A stretch of 45,228 nt of DNA, from NCBI GenBank assembly GCA_048881705.1, contig JBHLSH010000024.1:1-45228 (forward strand), given 5' to 3'. Positions 21,855-31,561 of this stretch are shown in pieces. The position numbers and the translations under genes were made by a program. The notes under the pieces are model-generated. The model saw nothing but the letters and a program-made list of their open reading frames with translations. It made no database searches and was not told the origin of the DNA. Source of the DNA: Candidatus Heimdallarchaeota archaeon. Lineage in GTDB: Archaea > Asgardarchaeota > Heimdallarchaeia > Hodarchaeales > Hodarchaeaceae. Position 1 is the first letter of the stretch. Every line of letters begins with the position of its first letter.

Positions 21855-23297
21855 TTACCCTTTTACCACTCCGACTGGCTTAACCTGAACAACCTTTTTC
21901 ACCACACCTGAATCGTGCATAGCATCGACCACATGTTCTACGTCCTTATAGGCGCCTGGAGCTTCTTCCGCCACCCCCACAAATGAATGTGCCTTAACGA
22001 CAATTCCCCGTTCAGCTAATTGCCGTACAATATCCTTACCGTAGTATTGCTTTTTTGCTCGTTTGCGCGACATACTGCGACCGGCGCCGTGGCATGCACT
22101 ACCGAAGGTTTCTTGCATCCCCAATTCGGTTCCTGTCAGGATATAGGATGATGTACCCATGGTTCCACCAATAAGGACGGGATGACCCACACTCTTGTAT
22201 TTTGAAGGAACCTGAGAGTGTTCGGGACCAAATGCTCGTGTGGAGCCCTTTCGATGAACCAAAACTCTTTTACCGTCGTGAGTCTCGAATTTGGATGTAT
22301 TGTGTCCAACATCGTAAAGCTGGTGGACTTCGGTCCCTAGAACCTTGTGAACAGTCTCACGGACAAGATGAGCGATTACTTGGCGGTTTGCAAAAGCGCA
22401 ATTGATGCCTGAATTGACAGCCGCAATGTAATCTTGACCCTCCTTGCTCTTAATCGGAGCGGAGCCCAATTCTTTGTCTGGTAATGGTAGATTGTATTTC
22501 TGGGAAGCCTGAACAAGAACTTTAGAGTAATCGGTCCCAATTTGGTGGCCTAGCCCTCTGGAGCCGCAGTGCATCGTTATCAAGAGCTGCTCGGGGAATA
22601 ATCCGAATTTTTTGGCAATAACTTCATCAAAGACCTTACTTACCACTTGTAGCTCGAGATAGTGGTTTCCTGACCCTAATGTACCGATCTGGTTATATTG
22701 TCGTTTCTTCGCTTTTAAACTGACTCTTTCTGGATCTGCCCCGTCAATACGTCCATTCTCTTCTGTATACTCGAGATCTTCTTCGGTACCATAGCCTTTT
22801 TCTACCATGTACCCTGCCCCTTCTCTCATCAGCTCATCCACTTGGGAGATCTCAAGCTGGATCTTGCCAGGTTTACCAAGCCCGGCCGGAACGGTTCGAA
22901 ACAACTCATTCATCAACTCGTTTTTCTGCGGATTGAGATCGGCCAAAGTGAGCTCGGTTAACATAGTACGAACTCCGCAATTTATGTCGTAACCAACGCC
23001 AGCCATGCTTACTACCCCTTCCTCTGCATCAAATGCGGCTACACCACCGATTGGGAATCCATAGCCGGGGTGGACGTCTGACATCGCCAACATACCCCGC
23101 TGAATGCCAGGTAATGATGCCACATTCATGATTTGGCGGGTAGCACTCCAATTACGGACATAATCGCGCTGGAGTTCCTCAATAATAGCCTGGTCACCAT
23201 AAATATATGCTGGTACTCGCATATTCCCTCTCTTTTCGATCGTCCAGAGATTCTTTCTGCCATTTACTTTTTTAAAGATATCAGATTCTTCTGTCAT
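21855..23297 (-). CDS. rtcB: RNA-splicing ligase RtcB
   Basis: DVHPGYGFPIG, GYDINCGVR, GSGNHYLE, HCGSRGLGHQ, HRKG, GTMG, HGAGR, EEAPGAYK. Confidence 0.97.
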   Translation of the reverse strand: MTEESDIFKKVNGRKNLWTIEKRGNMRVPAYIYGDQAIIEELQRDYVRNWSATRQIMNVASLPGIQRGMLAMSDVHPGYGFPIGGVAAFDAEEGVVSMAGVGYDINCGVRTMLTELTLADLNPQKNELMNELFRTVPAGLGKPGKIQLEISQVDELMREGAGYMVEKGYGTEEDLEYTEENGRIDGADPERVSLKAKKRQYNQIGTLGSGNHYLELQVVSKVFDEVIAKKFGLFPEQLLITMHCGSRGLGHQIGTDYSKVLVQASQKYNLPLPDKELGSAPIKSKEGQDYIAAVNSGINCAFANRQVIAHLVRETVHKVLGTEVHQLYDVGHNTSKFETHDGKRVLVHRKGSTRAFGPEHSQVPSKYKSVGHPVLIGGTMGTSSYILTGTELGMQETFGSACHGAGRSMSRKRAKKQYYGKDIVRQLAERGIVVKAHSFVGVAEEAPGAYKDVEHVVDAMHDSGVVKKVVQVKPVGVVKG

Positions 23298-23747
23298 TTA
23301 TACATCCACCAAACATTGAGCTATCCACTTGTTATCTGTAGTTTGCGTTATCTGTAGCTGGGTCCAGGTAGCTGCTTTAACCTCCAGTTTAAGTTTATGG
23401 CGGTCAATATCTATCGGTTCACCATAAATTTTGGCAACCAGACTGGTATCACTCAACTTTTCAACCTTGAATCGGCCGTACATTTTTCCTTCAACATCTT
23501 TCAAGTACAGGAGTTCGCTAAGCCATTCTAGAAGCAGTTCCTCCCGATTCGATGCCTTAATCTCGATCATGTCTGACTCACCCAGCTGGAGGTCTTTTGT
23601 TTCCACCATTATCTCGAACATGGCAAGGGCTACCTGTTCAAATGCTTCCACCAAGGTTGCACCCACACCTCTAACACCAATGTCCGCTTGATGCTCAAAA
23701 TACTCATAAGACATAGGCATCGACTCCAACCACACGAAAAACTCCAC
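23298..23747 (-). CDS. Archease (RtcB cofactor)
   Basis: YEYFEHQADIG, EVKAATW and C-terminal DV; its stop abuts the rtcB ATG (TAAATG); true start probably 23720 or 23714. Confidence 0.93.
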   Translation of the reverse strand: MEFFVWLESMPMSYEYFEHQADIGVRGVGATLVEAFEQVALAMFEIMVETKDLQLGESDMIEIKASNREELLLEWLSELLYLKDVEGKMYGRFKVEKLSDTSLVAKIYGEPIDIDRHKLKLEVKAATWTQLQITQTTDNKWIAQCLVDV

Positions 23748-23835
23748 GGATTTACTACTTTATGCACTTAGAACTTGGATTGGCCCTGAAAGCTTCTGAT
23801 GAAGAGTATTATGATTCGAAAAATAAGTCCCATTT

Positions 23836-23870
23836 TAAAAAGAAGAAAGTCCAAAAAAAAAAGAGGAGGG
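23836..23870 (-). terminator. T-rich tract downstream of the surface-protein gene
   Basis: Minus strand CCCTCCTCTTTTTTTTTTGGACTTTCTTCTTTT. Confidence 0.45.
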
Positions 23871-23904
23871 TATAAATGCCCTCAATATGTTGTGCTGTTT
23901 TGAG

Positions 23905-25755
23905 CTAGCGTTGTTTGCGCCTTTGCACCACTATTACCGCGAGAATGGGTAGAGCAATGACTGCCACGACTAGATCGAAACCAGGAATTGGGGCCGTTCC
24001 TGTTCCATCTCCAGCCACTGATCCTGCGACTGCCGCATACGTGGGATCATGCGTAATGCTCTTACCATCCCACTGTGGATAAGAAACTGAGTATAAGAAC
24101 GTTTTTCTCTGAACACTGCTCCGAATTCCGCGGATCAAGTCGGCTTCACTGGAAATCTGCCCATACGTGAAATCAATCAAGTTCATGGGGATTAGTTGCC
24201 CCGTGGCATTGACTTCTACAGTTCCATCCCACATATAAGGGATGTCATCCAACCTGATCTCACCAAAGGATGCTTGACTGTCACTAAATCGGATTCGTTG
24301 TACGCGAGACGCATTTTCAAACTGATCACTGATTTCAGTGGCGCTGTCATCTGCCCGCCAGCGGATCGATTCCTGTAGTTTCGCATCTACTACAGTAGAA
24401 GCCATCAACTGATTGAAGGATAAGCCAGTGAGCTGGCTAGCTGTATCCCACTCGCCTAGAACATAGTCAAACTTAAGGTTCGCGGTTCCATTATCGACAC
24501 TAAAATGAAATAGGGTGGACACTTCATCAATAGTATGGAGTCCCGATAAACTTTCATTAAACATAGTTATATCTTGATTTCGTTCAATGGGGTGTAAAAA
24601 ACCCTTCACGTTGGTAAAATCGGAACCAAAATCCAAAACGTTGTTCGTAGTTGTTGGACGGTGATAGGTTCGTGTATCTATGGACTGTGTATCAAAACGG
24701 AATAGAGCTTCATCCCCGATGGTGGGATAAACGAGCGTATTTTGTCCGATTGTAACGTTTTTGACGCCAATGTCCATGTATCCGTTATTGTTGGTATCAT
24801 TATAGACCAAACTGCCCAAGAGATGATGTTCAATATATTTATAGTCGAAATCGTTTATTAGTAGTCTTTGTCCCGTCTTTCGTAACGTTAGTTCATTGAT
24901 TTGCAACTGAGACACCGAGAACCGACCGCGTTTGAAAACGCGAGCATCCTTGTTAATCCAGTTAATGTCGGGGTGCGAAAAAGTACGCATCTGGTTGACC
25001 GCTGGAAGGCGAAAGAGAAGCCCAAGTTCCCTTGCGAGCCATTCGTGCGAAGTCAACCGAAAAATAAATCGCTTCAATAGTGTGGCATTGGATCCATCGT
25101 TGTATTGCCACTCGTTTTGAAGAACATAATTACCCCTAACTTCGTCCCGTACTAATGACATGAAGACGCTCGTGAGTATTTCATCGCCTGTAAATGGTTG
25201 AGAATCTAGAGTTTCATTGTTGGCAATTTTGGTGAACGCCTCAATGACAGACCTATCATGGTCATAAAAGATTGAAACTGCTTTCCGATCGTGTGTACTG
25301 TTTATCAACAGATTTGCATCGACGTTTTGATTGATCGAAAGCGATGTTTTGTCCGCTACTTCAGCGTAAAGGTTTGTTAGATAGACTTTCGAGGCAAGAT
25401 CTACCGTTGGATCGTTTTCTATGCCATTAATTGTCTGATTTAAGACATTAATGAAACGTGCTAAGAATATATTATGAGTTCTAGTACGAACACCACCTAT
25501 GGGATATTCGTATGAACCAACACTATTATAAACATCAAAATAGACGTTATCAGGCGTGAAATTTGCACTTTGCATACCACGTATTAACCAGAGTAAGTTA
25601 TTGTGCAATTGCGTTCGCATGATGCCTTGCGGGCGCTGTGGAACGATGGGGCCAATGGTAGTTTCATTTGCTGTTCCTGTGCTTGGTAGTATTGCTGAAG
25701 CAATAAGTAACCAACACACCATCGCTAATATTAGACCTTTTCGAGTTGTAATCAT
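23905..25755 (-). CDS. Secreted surface protein with a PGF-like (Heimdall/Loki-CTERM-like) sorting signal
   Basis: N-terminal signal peptide; C-terminal PIPGF-hydrophobic helix-QRRKQR after a Gly/Thr linker; DTNNNG Ca2+-loop-like motif. Confidence 0.8.
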   Translation of the reverse strand: MITTRKGLILAMVCWLLIASAILPSTGTANETTIGPIVPQRPQGIMRTQLHNNLLWLIRGMQSANFTPDNVYFDVYNSVGSYEYPIGGVRTRTHNIFLARFINVLNQTINGIENDPTVDLASKVYLTNLYAEVADKTSLSINQNVDANLLINSTHDRKAVSIFYDHDRSVIEAFTKIANNETLDSQPFTGDEILTSVFMSLVRDEVRGNYVLQNEWQYNDGSNATLLKRFIFRLTSHEWLARELGLLFRLPAVNQMRTFSHPDINWINKDARVFKRGRFSVSQLQINELTLRKTGQRLLINDFDYKYIEHHLLGSLVYNDTNNNGYMDIGVKNVTIGQNTLVYPTIGDEALFRFDTQSIDTRTYHRPTTTNNVLDFGSDFTNVKGFLHPIERNQDITMFNESLSGLHTIDEVSTLFHFSVDNGTANLKFDYVLGEWDTASQLTGLSFNQLMASTVVDAKLQESIRWRADDSATEISDQFENASRVQRIRFSDSQASFGEIRLDDIPYMWDGTVEVNATGQLIPMNLIDFTYGQISSEADLIRGIRSSVQRKTFLYSVSYPQWDGKSITHDPTYAAVAGSVAGDGTGTAPIPGFDLVVAVIALPILAVIVVQRRKQR

Positions 25756-26053
25756 TTTTCTGTCCCTATTATTTGGATTATCATTCTCATGAATGCATGT
25801 GTATTGAGGATTTTCCCTACTTAAGTCGCGTCTTATACGATTATTGAACTCGGCCGCGATGACTTAGTTTTTTTATTTCAGTCATCTCCTTAAAATTTTT
25901 CTGCATGGAATGCCATCAAGATCTGAATACGATGATTCACAATCCTTGACCCTGTGAATAGGAATATCGGGCAAGATTGACGCTTCATTGGATGCAATAT
26001 AAATGGAGGTGACGTTTAAGCTGTAATAGTTTATAATGACATAAAAAACCAGC

Positions 26054-26935
26054 TCAAAGAATTGTTGAAATAACCAGACTCAGAATAGAAAACCCGTAGA
26101 GGACAATAAATACAGGAATAAGGGCCCGCTCGAATTTAACGGTCTTGATAACTTGAAGAAGTTGAATCACAAAGACCGCAGTTATTATCTGAAGGATAAA
26201 GATGACGAGAATAGAGACCGTTGGATTGGCTAAGAGCGTGGCCAGTATGAAAAAATCTCTGCTTAATATTATTATAGCTGGGTACAGGAAGAGCGGGAGC
26301 AAGGCCAATGGGATACCGCTGAGGAGCTCTCGTGAGAAACCTTTAATAGAAAAATAGCGGGTAATGATTTCGAGACTCAACCATATCACGAGAATTGATG
26401 CTAAATACTCTCCCAAACAACCTATCAATCCAAAATACAAATCACCATCGAGATAGAAAGGAATCATCCCCAATTGGGAGAGATCAAGCAGTATGAGTTG
26501 ACAAACCATGACCCCAAAAACCAGTAAATTGAATTGACTTGTAAAAGCTCGTCTTCGGATGAATTCTCCAAAGAAAACACTGGAAAATCGTTTAGGAATC
26601 TGGGGAATGAACACGTCATCATGATTATTAGCCTTTTGAGCGTCATCGTGGAATTTTTCACCCGATTGAACTAGTTGATATGCAGTTTTTCCCATTTGTG
26701 TCAGATAAAACCGTTTCTCCTCATCCTGAGCAACCAATTGACCCAACTTCTTGATATGAAAATAAAAAGAACCAGGCTTAATTTGAAGCCACTCTACTAG
26801 TTCGGTATATTGTACTGCCCGATGAAAAGATCCTAAATATCGAACAATATCGTAGCGGATTGCATGCCCAAGGGCAGAGTAGAATTCATGTAAGGGAATG
26901 GATTTCTCTGCCACGGGCGCAATACCTACGTCCAT
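26054..26935 (-). CDS. Membrane-tethered winged-helix (ArsR-like) transcription regulator
   Basis: N-terminal ALGHAIRYDIV...GSFYFHIKKL...FYLTQMG wHTH pattern, then about 5-6 TM helices. Confidence 0.75.
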   Translation of the reverse strand: MDVGIAPVAEKSIPLHEFYSALGHAIRYDIVRYLGSFHRAVQYTELVEWLQIKPGSFYFHIKKLGQLVAQDEEKRFYLTQMGKTAYQLVQSGEKFHDDAQKANNHDDVFIPQIPKRFSSVFFGEFIRRRAFTSQFNLLVFGVMVCQLILLDLSQLGMIPFYLDGDLYFGLIGCLGEYLASILVIWLSLEIITRYFSIKGFSRELLSGIPLALLPLFLYPAIIILSRDFFILATLLANPTVSILVIFILQIITAVFVIQLLQVIKTVKFERALIPVFIVLYGFSILSLVISTIL

Positions 26936-26985
26936 TGAGATGCCTCGGTTTACCTTAACTGCTCGTAGTACCCTGAAAGCTGATT

Positions 26986-28374
26986 TTATGGCCGTTCAGT
27001 AAATTTGCGAATAATCACTACGATTCCTAGGAGAAACCCAGACACCAAGATCAGAAGACTGGTAGGTAGTAAGAACGAACGATTAGGAATAGGGAGAATC
27101 TGAAGTTCCACGGGATTGATTACCTCGATCAGAACCTCTGGATCATAAAAGATCTGGTTGCCTTGTGGAAATACGAAAATTCCCGTGAGGTACAACATGG
27201 AAACGAGATTGTATGGTGGACTTGGATTAACCAATCGGTTCTGTTCACCAGAAGATAGTGATTGAAAATAAACTGGGAAATCTATACTATCCGCTAAAAC
27301 AGTGGGGATCCATGTGAAATTGAGAAAATCACGATCGCGGTTTCCGAACGAAAACCGCGAATTAACGAGTCTGTGACGTGCAAACTCGATTCCCTGGCTT
27401 TTATCATGCTCTAACTCGTACGATTGGTTTATTGATTTGTCCCGTTCCTGGGCAACGAATTTTAAGCGTCCTAGAAGATTGGTCGCTTGTAGAATGTTTC
27501 TAGAGAGATTAAGCTGAATCAGCGGTCTAGTGATCTGGAACTGTTCTCTTGCAAAAGTAGTGATCTTCAATGCTAGTTTAGAGGTTGGACTATTGAAATC
27601 CCAACCTGTAATATTCATTGAAAACTTCAATCGAGGAGTGAGGCGTATTGCTCTGAGGGGTAATGTTGTGGGTTTCACCGTGACATCTAGGCTTCGGCCT
27701 TGTGGTCTGATTCGAATCGTTGGAACCTGAACCTGCTCAATCATTTCTCGTGTTATCGTCAGTTCAAAGCTAAATGCGATCTTTTCTAGTTTCGAAGAGG
27801 TAGTTGTAGAATTTCGAAACCTTCTACCATAGGATACGTCTAAAGCTGAGAAAATAATTTGATATTGCAGGGCCGTGGAATTAATCTTTTCACTGAGCTT
27901 TTGAACCGAGAATACAATATTAGAGATGTTCACGCTGCGGATAAGGCGATCTGTTCCACGAGGATCATACCAGCTGTTGCCATTATTATCCTCGAATTCT
28001 ACTAGGTTATCGAGCTGGAAAAGGATAGAGTTTGTTGTGTTAAGCTCTAGCTCTTCCACTACGGTTCCACGGGTATTTAGGCGCTCAATCTTAGCGATTC
28101 GTTGCGTATATTCCGCAAAAAAACGAATTGGTTGTGGGTTTTCGGAGGTTCGATGCAAAATTCCTATTCTAGAGGTACCGATGACAGCTTGGATCGATTT
28201 AACGCCACCCATATAAGAAATTTCATCTTGTACGATCTGAAATGGCATGGATTGGTTCAAATCATTAGGCTTGTTCGGAATAGCTCCGAGACTTACAATA
28301 GGGTTTAAACATAAGACAAAAATAACAAGAAATCTTGTGAAAAACCCTAAGGATGATGTAAGTCCAAGTGTCAT
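26986..28374 (-). CDS. Secreted protein with a C-terminal TM anchor; paralog of 23905-25755
   Basis: Signal peptide; DNNGN loop; LKFSMNITGWD; FYDPEV; C-terminal TM helix plus basic tail. Confidence 0.75.
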   Translation of the reverse strand: MTLGLTSSLGFFTRFLVIFVLCLNPIVSLGAIPNKPNDLNQSMPFQIVQDEISYMGGVKSIQAVIGTSRIGILHRTSENPQPIRFFAEYTQRIAKIERLNTRGTVVEELELNTTNSILFQLDNLVEFEDNNGNSWYDPRGTDRLIRSVNISNIVFSVQKLSEKINSTALQYQIIFSALDVSYGRRFRNSTTTSSKLEKIAFSFELTITREMIEQVQVPTIRIRPQGRSLDVTVKPTTLPLRAIRLTPRLKFSMNITGWDFNSPTSKLALKITTFAREQFQITRPLIQLNLSRNILQATNLLGRLKFVAQERDKSINQSYELEHDKSQGIEFARHRLVNSRFSFGNRDRDFLNFTWIPTVLADSIDFPVYFQSLSSGEQNRLVNPSPPYNLVSMLYLTGIFVFPQGNQIFYDPEVLIEVINPVELQILPIPNRSFLLPTSLLILVSGFLLGIVVIIRKFTERP

Positions 28375-28516
28375 ACGCTAGCTCTCAATTGAAGTTGGAA
28401 AAATCCTGATTAAAGCGTAGTGTTAAAGGTTCCCTGAACATATGTTCAAAACGGGGAAGGACAGATCTCCTAAGGAGTGTCCCCAAAATTCGGGTTGAGT
28501 TTCCTAAACAGACTGT

Positions 28517-29854
28517 TTAAGACATGGAAGAACCCTGAGATAATGGAAGTTCAAAAAATATGGTAGTACCAATTCCTTCAGTACTCTCCATCCATATTCT
28601 ACCGCCATGGGTCTCCACGATTTTTTTTACGTGCGCCAACCCTATTCCTGTACCCTCAATTTCCCGAGTTCTCAAGCTAGGGGCCCGTGCAAATAAATTA
28701 AAGATACGGGACTGAAATTTCTCCGGAACTCCAATACCATTGTCTCTAACATAAATTGTGATGAAATTTTCATCAACGGCGTGTTTACCAATTTCGATTA
28801 TGGGAGAAGGATTATCACCGCGATATTTAATGCTGTTCCCGATCAAATTACTGAATAACTGCATCATGCGATTTTCTTCAGCATGTATCTGTGAAAATTC
28901 GTCTGAAATAACGATCTTAATGTTGTTGTTCTTGATTTGTGTTGTATATTGGCTAAGACACTCCTCTATGATTTCTCGAAGATTCAAATTACGTTTTGGA
29001 GTCGTAACTATCCTTCCGATACGTGAATACTCTAAAATTTGTTTAATTTGCATCTCAATTATCTGTACATTCTTAATAATTCTGTCTAGATAAAATTGAG
29101 CTTCCTTAGGCAGATCCTCCCCATATTCCTCCTTAATCGCAGCTGTAAACCCTTGAATTGAAATTAACGGAGCCTTTAGATCATGGCTAATTGTATAGAC
29201 AAACTCCTCAATCTCCATATTTTTATTTTTGAGAGTTTTTGCTTGAACGCTCAATTTCCGTAATAATTCTCGTCGCTGTTCATACTCTCGTCGTGCCCGT
29301 TCATCTTTTTCTTTAGCAGACAGACCTGAGTCTGGAAGTGAATTATTTAGCGGAAAATGCTCAATTATAAAGAAAACCAGATTTGATACGGTTTTAAAGA
29401 AAGAGAAATCTTTCTGTAAAGGTCTAAAGGCGGGATCAAGACCAACATATCCTAAACACAAATCCTCGGAAGTTTTTCTCCCCTTTCTTTGAACAAGTAA
29501 TGCCGAATGAATCGTTTTCCCATTTAAAACCAATGAAAAACCTGGGGTCTCCTCTAGAGAGTAAACGCCTATTTCCTCTTCAAATTTTTCTCCTTGAAGA
29601 CTTCGTAGAAAGCTGTTTAACGAATCAAGATCTTCTAATAATTTAGAATTTAAGCTAGCATGTGAAAGAATCTTGGAACCATCTTGTAAGACTATTAGCT
29701 CAATGGGATAGATCTCTGATAGAAGTTTCAGAAGATTCATGATGAAATGATTAAGATTATCAAAATCTAGTAGGTTGTATGAGAGTTCTAGAACGATCCT
29801 TTGATGACTTTCTTGTACTACATTGCTGTGGGCAGACTCTTTTTCTGAATTCAT
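28517..29854 (-). CDS. Cytoplasmic sensor histidine kinase
   Basis: H-box SHDLKAPL, N-box QLFSNLIGNSIKY, G1 VRDNGIG, F-box RIFNLF, G2 GTGIGLA, GTTIFF. Confidence 0.95.
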   Translation of the reverse strand: MNSEKESAHSNVVQESHQRIVLELSYNLLDFDNLNHFIMNLLKLLSEIYPIELIVLQDGSKILSHASLNSKLLEDLDSLNSFLRSLQGEKFEEEIGVYSLEETPGFSLVLNGKTIHSALLVQRKGRKTSEDLCLGYVGLDPAFRPLQKDFSFFKTVSNLVFFIIEHFPLNNSLPDSGLSAKEKDERARREYEQRRELLRKLSVQAKTLKNKNMEIEEFVYTISHDLKAPLISIQGFTAAIKEEYGEDLPKEAQFYLDRIIKNVQIIEMQIKQILEYSRIGRIVTTPKRNLNLREIIEECLSQYTTQIKNNNIKIVISDEFSQIHAEENRMMQLFSNLIGNSIKYRGDNPSPIIEIGKHAVDENFITIYVRDNGIGVPEKFQSRIFNLFARAPSLRTREIEGTGIGLAHVKKIVETHGGRIWMESTEGIGTTIFFELPLSQGSSMS

Positions 29855-30079
29855 GATTCATCTTCTTGAACTGAATGTCTTTTAATTCTCCACTGCTGAA
29901 CTTATAAGCTGCTCGGGTGATTCAATCCTTTCAAAATGAAAGCTTATTTCTAGCATTATCTATGCAATTGGATCAGACCTGGAAAACGATGCGAAATTTG
30001 GATTCAAAGTTCCAACAATACCTCTAGAAGCAATAAGAGTTCTCCTTTCTCCCTTTTGTGTAATAAATTTTAGGGAAAT

Positions 30080-30334
30080 TCATATATTCCTTATTTCTTG
30101 AAGATCAGGATGTTTTTGTTGTAAAGTTCGTTTGATACCAGCGGCTAACGTCATTTCGCTATAAGGACAACCTCTACAAGCTCCTGTTAGTCGAACTGTG
30201 AGGGTACCGTCTTCATAATCGATAAATTCAACATCCCCACCATCTTTTTGGAGATAGGGACGTAACTCTTGTAAGGATGCTCTGATATCATTTTTGGCTG
30301 CCATCGGAATATTCCTTCTACCAAAATCAGACAA
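30080..30334 (-). CDS. NifU/Nfu C-terminal-domain Fe-S carrier protein
   Basis: RPYLQKDGGDVE and LTGACRGCPYS; probable start ATG at 30304. Confidence 0.9.
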   Translation of the reverse strand: MSDFGRRNIPMAAKNDIRASLQELRPYLQKDGGDVEFIDYEDGTLTVRLTGACRGCPYSEMTLAAGIKRTLQQKHPDLQEIRNI

Positions 30335-30523
30335 ATGTGTTGGAGGTTAGGTACGGGAAACCCCTTGTGTCTTTTTAGGGTTTCATTAACCATAGTTATG
30401 TGTGTAGAAATAATCCTTCTCGATCGACCTCTCCCAAATGCTATCCAATGAAATGACGTAATCTAATCTAGTTAATCCAATATTTGAACATTCTTTAGAG
30501 AGAAGAGGAAGGAGCTCTGTATT

Positions 30524-31561
30524 CTAGGCTGTAGAAATATCCATCCTACTGAAATTTTCTGGTTCGTTTGCATCACTCTCATGAACCAAGTCCCCTATAT
30601 CAATGGCGGTCTCTCGTAAGTCACGTAAGAAATTAAGGAGGTAAGTGAGTTTCCAGACATCTTCTTTGGCGAGACGTGAGATTTCCCTTTCAACTTCCTC
30701 GTGGATTCCCGTTAACTGTCTTCTAATCCTTCCTTTCAATTGTTCTGCGCCCTGACCATTTTGTTCGAAGAAACAAACTAAACTCTGATTCAAGACATCG
30801 GTTGTCAGCTCGCTAAGACGGCTGATCTTTGATAATGTGTCGGAACTTAGCGCATCTTTCATTTCAGGATATTTTTTGACAACTCGTGCGAATTCCACAG
30901 AGGAATCCCCCAGATCTTCACTGTAGCTGGCAATCATACGCCAATCCAAACACGCGGTCGATTTCAGATAAGACATCTCCCGTTTATCGTTGACCATGAT
31001 CTTTAGCATCCGAACAATCAAGAAATAGAGCCTATTGACCTCAACATCACGTTCGATGACTTCCACTGCCAGAGTAACATCTCCTTCCAGAAATGCATTG
31101 ATCGCATCGCTTTGCATTTGGTTAGCGATCGAAAAACAACGGTTCACATATTCGGTAGGATCGGGCAGAGACGAAGAGTCTATAAGAAAATGGAGTTCGA
31201 TGGATCTCTGGGTTTCACCGAGGATCTCCAATCCCACCAATTGACGTGTAAGTTCTTTGATAGCGGCCTTATGGGTCAGAGGTTGCTTGATATCAGGTGA
31301 TCTAACCGCAATTATATCACTTCCCAACAAATAGGCCCCGAGAACATCCCGACTAACATGATTTGATTCTACAATGTTGGAAATTCGTTTTGATGGTATG
31401 GGAGATTTCTGCGGGTAAATTATGAGGTCACCTGTCGATAACTCCTTGATAACGATATTTGATCCCTTGGTAAGTTGATGTCGTTCTGCCCAGTCTTTCG
31501 GGAGTGATATAATACGCGTGTCCCCAGCCCCCGTTACTTGTACCTTCCTACTAAATTCCAT
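30524..31561 (-). CDS. phoU: Archaeal phosphate uptake regulator (AbrB-like N-terminus plus PhoU domains)
   Basis: RKVQVTG...ISLPKDWA, GAYLLG, VIERDVEVNRLYF, EDLGD, AIDIGD. Confidence 0.88.
   Translation of the reverse strand: MEFSRKVQVTGAGDTRIISLPKDWAERHQLTKGSNIVIKELSTGDLIIYPQKSPIPSKRISNIVESNHVSRDVLGAYLLGSDIIAVRSPDIKQPLTHKAAIKELTRQLVGLEILGETQRSIELHFLIDSSSLPDPTEYVNRCFSIANQMQSDAINAFLEGDVTLAVEVIERDVEVNRLYFLIVRMLKIMVNDKREMSYLKSTACLDWRMIASYSEDLGDSSVEFARVVKKYPEMKDALSSDTLSKISRLSELTTDVLNQSLVCFFEQNGQGAEQLKGRIRRQLTGIHEEVEREISRLAKEDVWKLTYLLNFLRDLRETAIDIGDLVHESDANEPENFSRMDISTA

Follow-up and report, generated by a model that had tools for sequence, protein, structure and literature searches.

Transmembrane transcription regulators (TTRs), which combine a DNA-binding domain with a transmembrane (TM) region and bind DNA and regulate from the membrane, are widespread and occur in archaea as well (PMC10269533). 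Some have co-transcribed single-pass partners, as in ToxR/ToxS and TcpP/TcpH; the archaeal ArnR and ArnR1 of Sulfolobus acidocaldarius are membrane-bound one-component regulators that control genes for cell-surface structures (PMC6396743). Here, we consider a three-gene cassette, A462–B293–C616, of a Candidatus Heimdallarchaeota archaeon (order Hodarchaeales), located on contig JBHLSH010000024.1 within a window of 45,228 nucleotides (positions 1 to 45,228, the whole stretch of DNA that was analyzed). In our preferred reading, to which we assign a probability of about 0.5, B293 is a TTR, A462 its co-transcribed membrane partner or co-sensor, and C616 a co-regulated output that is sorted by an archaeosortase. 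The genes, in the order in which they are read, are:

28374..26986, minus strand: A462 gene, an open reading frame (ORF) of 462 aa
26935..26054, minus strand: B293 gene, an ORF of 293 aa
25755..23905, minus strand: C616 gene, an ORF of 616 aa

A first-pass annotation of the same DNA had placed three co-directional genes at exactly these positions, and all three ORFs are indeed found there on the minus strand, with intergenic gaps of 50 bp between A462 and B293 and 298 bp between B293 and C616.

The cassette resembles the ToxR/ToxS and TcpP/TcpH systems of Vibrio, and CadC, in having a membrane-tethered winged helix and, as proposed here, in controlling surface or exported products; with the first two it also shares an adjacent co-transcribed single-pass protein with an outside domain, for which we propose the role of partner. 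It differs from them in that its helix-turn-helix (HTH) is of the ArsR/DUF7347 type and theirs of the OmpR/PhoB type, and in that ToxR-like proteins cross the membrane once and carry a periplasmic sensor, whereas B293 has five to six TM helices and itself lacks an outside domain. Unlike ToxS and TcpH, the candidate partner A462 is a predicted glycosylated supersandwich of about 380 aa, and the cassette, whose function is read from sequence, would operate in an archaeal cell from a TBP/TFB-type promoter. The likeness to ArnR and ArnR1 lies in the proposed control of surface structures by an archaeal membrane-bound HTH protein; ArnR has another domain layout and is not known to be flanked by genes for paralogous surface-protein partners. 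The earlier remark that a system laid out in this way had not been described is overstated in kind, because TTRs with co-transcribed single-pass partners are already known, and it holds for the specific combination, which we did not find described. Our literature searches likewise returned no description of DUF7347, of Heimdall-CTERM proteins or of the pairing seen in the cassette, and nothing relevant on archaeal dark matter with a winged HTH (wHTH) and a membrane region.

B293 is a candidate transmembrane transcription regulator

B293 consists of an N-terminal ArsR-like winged helix (DUF7347), a linker of about 45 aa, and five to six TM helices separated by very short loops. Its putative DNA-binding portion is:

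26672..26887, minus strand: wHTH (DUF7347) of B293, residues 17–88, Pfam match

The description of the middle gene as a wHTH fused to five or six TM helices is borne out by the DUF7347 match (E 2.5e-7; 31.3 bits against a cut-off of 27.6 bits) and by five hydrophobic segments of at least 19 residues each, at 137, 170, 205, 242 and 271; the TM segments are retained in an alignment of distant homologues. A set of 69 relatives of B293 are 50–60% identical to it. HTH_5, HTH_20 or HTH_24 is found in relatives, and look-alike clusters that combine HTH_5, HTH_20 or DUF7347 with TM regions are present in several archaeal phyla. Even homologues with an identity of only 15–25% keep the HTH consensus K-x-G-x-LYHHL-x-KL, which resembles the ArsR recognition helix. 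In other proteins, RDD or MEDS modules are joined to the B-type HTH, a combination typical of one-component regulators, and Asgard archaea also possess a stand-alone B293-type membrane domain that lacks the HTH. A B-type paralogue in the same genome, on contig C36, scores 19.7 bits against HTH_5, compared with a cut-off of 22. Searches of Pfam and NCBIfam gave no match of B293 to Trans_reg_C, and comparison with PDB sequences revealed no sequence link. In uniting a DNA-binding domain and a TM region in one polypeptide, B293 agrees with the sequence definition of TTRs (PMC10269533); its DUF7347/ArsR-like HTH, its five to six TM helices and its lack of an outside domain set it apart from the ToxR-like family. 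On these sequence features, we regard B293 as a candidate TTR.

The flanking genes encode remote paralogues with different anchors

A462 comprises a signal peptide, an ectodomain of about 380 aa, a PNR juxtamembrane motif, a TM helix with a GxxxG motif, and a short basic tail; it is a predicted type-I membrane glycoprotein, with an ectodomain that its structure model shows as a galactose-mutarotase-like beta-supersandwich. C616, a predicted secreted glycoprotein, has a signal peptide, a larger supersandwich ectodomain with helical insertions, and a PGF-type (Heimdall-CTERM) tail. In both ectodomains, the density of N-glycosylation sequons is about three times that of the genome. The two C-termini are:

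27007..27087, minus strand: C-terminal anchor of A462, residues 430–456, with the invariant columns of a 20-sequence orthologue alignment
23914..23991, minus strand: Heimdall-CTERM/PGF-type tail of C616, residues 589–614 (PIPGFD, hydrophobic helix, RRKQR)

The invariant positions of the A462 anchor are P430-N431-R432, S439 and G446-x-x-x-G450, followed by basic residues. In C616, a hydrophobic stretch of 19 residues lies between PIPGFD and RRKQR, giving the tripartite PGF-CTERM pattern of PGF motif, hydrophobic helix and basic cluster on a protein with a signal peptide. This is the type of C-terminal signal found on PGF-CTERM substrates such as the Haloferax S-layer glycoprotein and the Heimdall-CTERM proteins, from which C616 differs in that its tail falls just short of the NCBIfam threshold (20.9 bits against the 24-bit cut-off of NF045529) and its ectodomain is unrelated to known S-layer proteins; one C616 orthologue (P0048) is annotated as Heimdall-CTERM by NCBI. 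Genome-wide, the same tail type is present on about 18 signal-peptide proteins, out of 23 raw regular-expression matches, and two archaeosortase-family genes score above the TIGR04178 cut-off (on contigs C35 and C28); a search of the genome with PF09721 gave no exosortase match. C616 is single-copy, is 49–57% identical across the genus, and is probably exported, with an archaeosortase acting on its PGF tail. The contrast that had been drawn between a plain TM helix on one protein and a sortase signal on the other holds.

The relationship between A462 and C616 goes undetected both by BLASTP (E 0.44) and by hhalign when a narrow profile of A462 orthologues is compared with C616 (probability 0.4%). 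We therefore rely on a broad A-superfamily profile, built by an exhaustive search with the A462 orthologues (E ≤ 1e-3) and holding 182 representatives at 50% identity; its members are 430–680 aa long and have a signal peptide and a C-terminal anchor, and Pfam gave no match for A462, C616 or 100 superfamily members. The broad profile aligns with the C616 family at a probability of 96.1% (E 3.1e-9) over 244 columns (A462 114–421, C616 305–579) and still at 94.3% (E 1e-7) after trimming of signal peptides and TM helices, and a search of the genome's 3554 ORFs with the corresponding hidden Markov model returns C616 itself (E 3.7e-5). All three collinear blocks that the first-pass annotation had noted fall in register in this alignment, of which block 1, a DxNxNG loop, is invariant in the C616 family and only loosely kept among A462 orthologues. 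Because both the broad-profile comparison and the hidden Markov model connect the two proteins, and because their predicted structures share a galactose-mutarotase-like supersandwich, the suggestion that they are paralogues is sustained as one of remote homology.

The predicted structures can be superposed on solved proteins of the galactose-mutarotase-like supersandwich fold for the greater part of the domain, and for both models the top solved structure is GLMP (NCU-G1; PDB 6NYQ, 8R8Q), the accessory glycoprotein of the lysosomal transporter MFSD1. GLMP has, like A462, a single supersandwich ectodomain, type-I topology, heavy N-glycosylation and a pairing with a multi-pass membrane protein; its lead over bacterial mutarotase-like proteins is only about 1 Z unit, effectively a tie. 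A search of the PDB with the A-superfamily profile gave no relevant match, and at E ≤ 1 the Pfam profile NCU-G1 (PF15065) picked up nothing in the genome, such that the likeness of A462 and C616 to GLMP is one at the level of fold only. Our literature search found nothing that connects GLMP with Asgard archaea. Ribophorin I was also considered as a homologue of A462 and was rejected, as the fold matches to OST1 are weak (probability <0.2) and PF04597 matches elsewhere in the genome, on contig C73. There, a 700-aa open frame (C73:5551-6960; L051, L052) scores above the Pfam Ribophorin_I cut-off (34 bits) and is a separate homologue of a eukaryote-signature oligosaccharyltransferase subunit.

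The layout is conserved in the genus and recurs outside it

With ORFs called mechanically in the loci of relatives, the order A–B–C is found in all 12 loci of the same GTDB genus that have enough flanking sequence, two further loci being cut by contig ends. Across the genus, the A–B gap is 16–51 bp and the B–C spacer about 270–320 bp; three shorter spacer values stem from over-called C starts. Orthologues of B293 and C616 occur together in 15 of 21 other genomes of the genus and are both not found in six, one of which is 96% complete and consists of a single contig; in a seventh genome, G006, the matches to both are weak and partial. Because the two are present or missing together, the cassette behaves as an accessory unit and is not part of an essential envelope gene set.

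In the genome studied here, the only two B-family genes adjoin all four genes of the A/C superfamily. The second module (C36:28215-31666; L083:4216-7667) consists of two A-type supersandwich genes in tandem, of 402 and 416 aa, and after them a B-type wHTH-TM gene of 290 aa, and two relatives have orthologous copies (L106, L093). Outside the genus, a DUF7347 wHTH-TM gene directly adjoins the A-type gene in 18 of the 40 Asgard loci that were fetched around A-type genes, and the same pair is present at L047 and L049, two loci that were retrieved by way of B genes; together, loci with such a pair cover nearly all loci of the class Heimdallarchaeia that were fetched. Co-localization, which the earlier proposal had named as its own check, is accordingly retained, as the full A–B–C order within the genus and as A–B pairs across Heimdallarchaeia.

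The full layout reappears in three genomes of another Asgard family (f17), in which a TM-anchored paralogue, a DUF7347-RDD membrane protein and a PGF-anchored paralogue lie together, the two flanking proteins being 47% identical to each other:

L117:3905-7708: three-gene locus of family f17
L132:5783-9562: three-gene locus of family f17
L133:2166-6018: three-gene locus of family f17

No other observation argues as strongly for a functional layout as this independent recurrence, in which a TM-anchored and a sortase-tailed paralogue again surround a membrane wHTH protein. We interpret the cassette as an accessory module that Hodarchaeales-type Heimdallarchaeia have conserved by vertical descent.

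Two further arrangements were observed among the loci. At three of them (L045:4873-7947, L046:4906-7980 and L048:8895-12086), a B-type gene is followed by a gene for a C-terminally anchored signal-peptide protein of 1024–1063 aa, which has no match to the A or C profiles; this suggests that in some Heimdallarchaeia the B-type regulator family pairs with further surface proteins too. On three non-Asgard metagenome contigs (L125:1-1197, L126:668-3535 and L127:754-3501), an A-superfamily gene is divergent from the gene for a cytoplasmic protein of 915–955 aa.

A pseudo-palindromic element precedes both flanking genes

An unsupervised expectation-maximization search of the regions upstream of A and C in 12–14 orthologous loci converged on a single 20-bp pseudo-palindromic element with the core TTCAA(C/G)-N4-GT(A/T)TAAC. 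It precedes C at all 12 loci and A at 13 of the 14 (L038 scores 3.2), about 50–120 bp before the start codons and beside TATA-like boxes. The copies in the window are:

25832..25851, minus strand: element upstream of C616, core TTCAAT-N4-GTATAA, 77 bp before the start codon
28422..28441, minus strand: diverged copy of the element, 48 bp ahead of the A462 start codon

Scored with a position weight matrix built without the window and its closest relative (reporting threshold 13 bits), the C616 site ranks first in the 3.96-Mb genome, at 19.9 bits against 17.8 for the next, and its exact pattern has three matches genome-wide. In its relative position, the A462 site agrees with strong copies (TTCAAG-N4-GTTTAAC) at 11 of the 12 other loci of the genus, L038 being the exception. 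In five relatives' loci, a perfect TTCAAC-N4-GTTGAA palindrome lies just past the stop codon of B. Across the whole genome, the exact patterns are rare. The f17 loci have an element of their own, partly palindromic (of the type GTTTTCT-N4-AGAAAAC), which is likewise shared by the regions upstream of both flanking genes.

Since the element is common to the promoters of A and C, it points to co-regulation of the two genes. Operator-like elements that are specific to the lineage, in two lineages, fit a local dimeric wHTH regulator, for which B293 would be the candidate binder. Elsewhere in the genome, a match of 18 bits (with the in-sample matrix only) lies at C79:10541-10560; a GlmS-like gene (609 aa, N-terminus MCGIIA) begins 139 bp downstream of it and has a divergent ArsR-like gene beside it. 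This is possibly a chance match.

Neighbouring genes

Downstream of the cassette, the window ORFs and domain search identify genes for archease and RtcB. Upstream, window positions 28517–31561 encode a small NifU-like protein, an AbrB/PhoU-like protein and a cytoplasmic histidine kinase with HisKA and HATPase_c domains. This upstream synteny is common to several members of the genus; at least one relative lacks the kinase at its locus (L043), and linkage to the cassette is therefore doubtful. An Rfam scan of window positions 23000–29000 found no RNA family.

Proposed mechanism and alternatives

In the mechanism that we propose, A462 and B293 would form one transcription unit, and C616 would be driven by its own promoter in the B–C spacer. 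The winged helix of B293 would face the cytoplasm, tethered by a membrane domain of five to six helices that has no sizeable outside loop, so that B293 would be unable to sense the exterior alone. The heavily glycosylated, single-pass A462 would expose its mutarotase-like supersandwich, of a carbohydrate-binding type, outside the cell, and would act as the extracytoplasmic partner of B293, as co-sensor and/or stabilizer, through TM packing at GxxxG. A dimer of B293 would then bind the pseudo-palindromic element beside the TATA-like boxes of the A–B operon and of C616, and thereby set the level of the exported paralogue. The assignment of A462 as partner or sensor and of C616 as regulated output is plausible, because the widespread core module consists of A-type and B-type genes only, and because A462 keeps a GxxxG TM helix while a sorting signal such as that of C616 is normally cleaved.

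Several observations weigh against this reading. In loci of Loki/Thor-type families, A-type genes mostly have no detectable B-type neighbour, and the few non-Asgard A-superfamily loci (a Thermoplasmatales metagenome-assembled genome and metagenome contigs) have no DUF7347-TM neighbour. At the promoters, the A462 site of the window scores 19.7 bits in-sample and is diverged, falling below the 13-bit threshold with the leave-out matrix; the perfect palindrome seen past B in relatives is absent from the window; and the shared element may just comprise the core promoter (transcription factor B recognition element and TATA box) or bind another factor. The match of B293 to the NCBIfam ArsR/SmtB model HTH_metalloreg is sub-threshold (E 0.029; 14.2 bits against a 55-bit cut-off). 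Finally, DNA binding by B293, contact between A462 and B293, the ligand, and the direction of regulation are all things that we infer.

Among other explanations, we consider it unlikely that the three proteins instead form a structural envelope complex, with B293 a platform or assembly factor for two glycoproteins, its winged helix serving protein contacts or chromosome tethering, and the promoter element bound by a factor other than B293. The close adjacency of A and B with their short gaps, the conserved GxxxG of the A462 TM helix, the presence or absence of the cassette as one unit, and the existence in Asgard archaea of the B-type membrane domain alone would all suit such a complex; it sits poorly with the retention of an ArsR-like recognition-helix consensus across very distant homologues, with the joining of the same HTH, in the manner of one-component regulators, to membrane or sensor modules that are unrelated (RDD, MEDS), and with the two lineages in which both flanking promoters carry a palindrome specific to the lineage. 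An arrangement on the pattern of GLMP and MFSD1, in which the A family would be an archaeal relative of eukaryotic GLMP and A462 a protective glycosylated accessory subunit of B293, itself chiefly engaged in transport or another membrane activity, draws on the shared fold and topology and strikes us as improbable: the lead of GLMP over bacterial mutarotase-like proteins is effectively a tie, neither the PDB profile search nor PF15065 yields a sequence signal, and B293 has a DNA-binding domain with its five to six helices and is not recognizable as a transporter.

We also give little credence to the view that C616 is the major envelope glycoprotein of S-layer type, to which A462 and B293 are neighbours by inherited synteny without a functional tie. 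C616 is well conserved across the genus (at the 49–57% identity given above) and single-copy, has a PGF-type anchor, many sequons and a long upstream spacer of its own, and cultured Hodarchaeales are reported to have S-layer proteins that are N-glycosylated (KTGHC1_P6247 and KTGSC1_P0196, described as a homotetramer with a central pore; bioRxiv 10.1101/2025.02.26.640444). However, the genus genomes in which C616 is not found, among them the 96%-complete single contig, are exactly those in which B293 is missing; the layout arises independently in f17; a promoter element is common to both flanking genes; and conservation over many Asgard lineages is ascribed to the published S-layer proteins, which does not hold for C616. 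Setting these alternatives beside the reading of B293 as a TTR with A462 as partner and C616 as output, we favour the latter at the probability given at the outset. An extension of it, in which Heimdallarchaeia would possess paralogous trans-envelope modules whose ArsR-type regulator senses through a glycan-binding, GLMP-like glycoprotein that is the archaeal ancestor of GLMP, is a long shot.

Significance

Asgard archaea are the closest prokaryotic relatives of eukaryotes, and little is known of how their surface, which mediates obligate syntrophic contacts, is built and regulated. The cassette offers a concrete circuit, with a regulator, a candidate 20-bp operator that is present at two promoters, and candidates for the membrane partner and for the output protein, and its predictions can be checked because cultured Hodarchaeales now exist. 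The analysis also defines an uncharacterized archaeal protein superfamily of a carbohydrate-binding-type fold, with 182 representatives and no Pfam family. The recurrence of the layout suggests a previously undescribed link between the cell surface and gene control in Asgard archaea.

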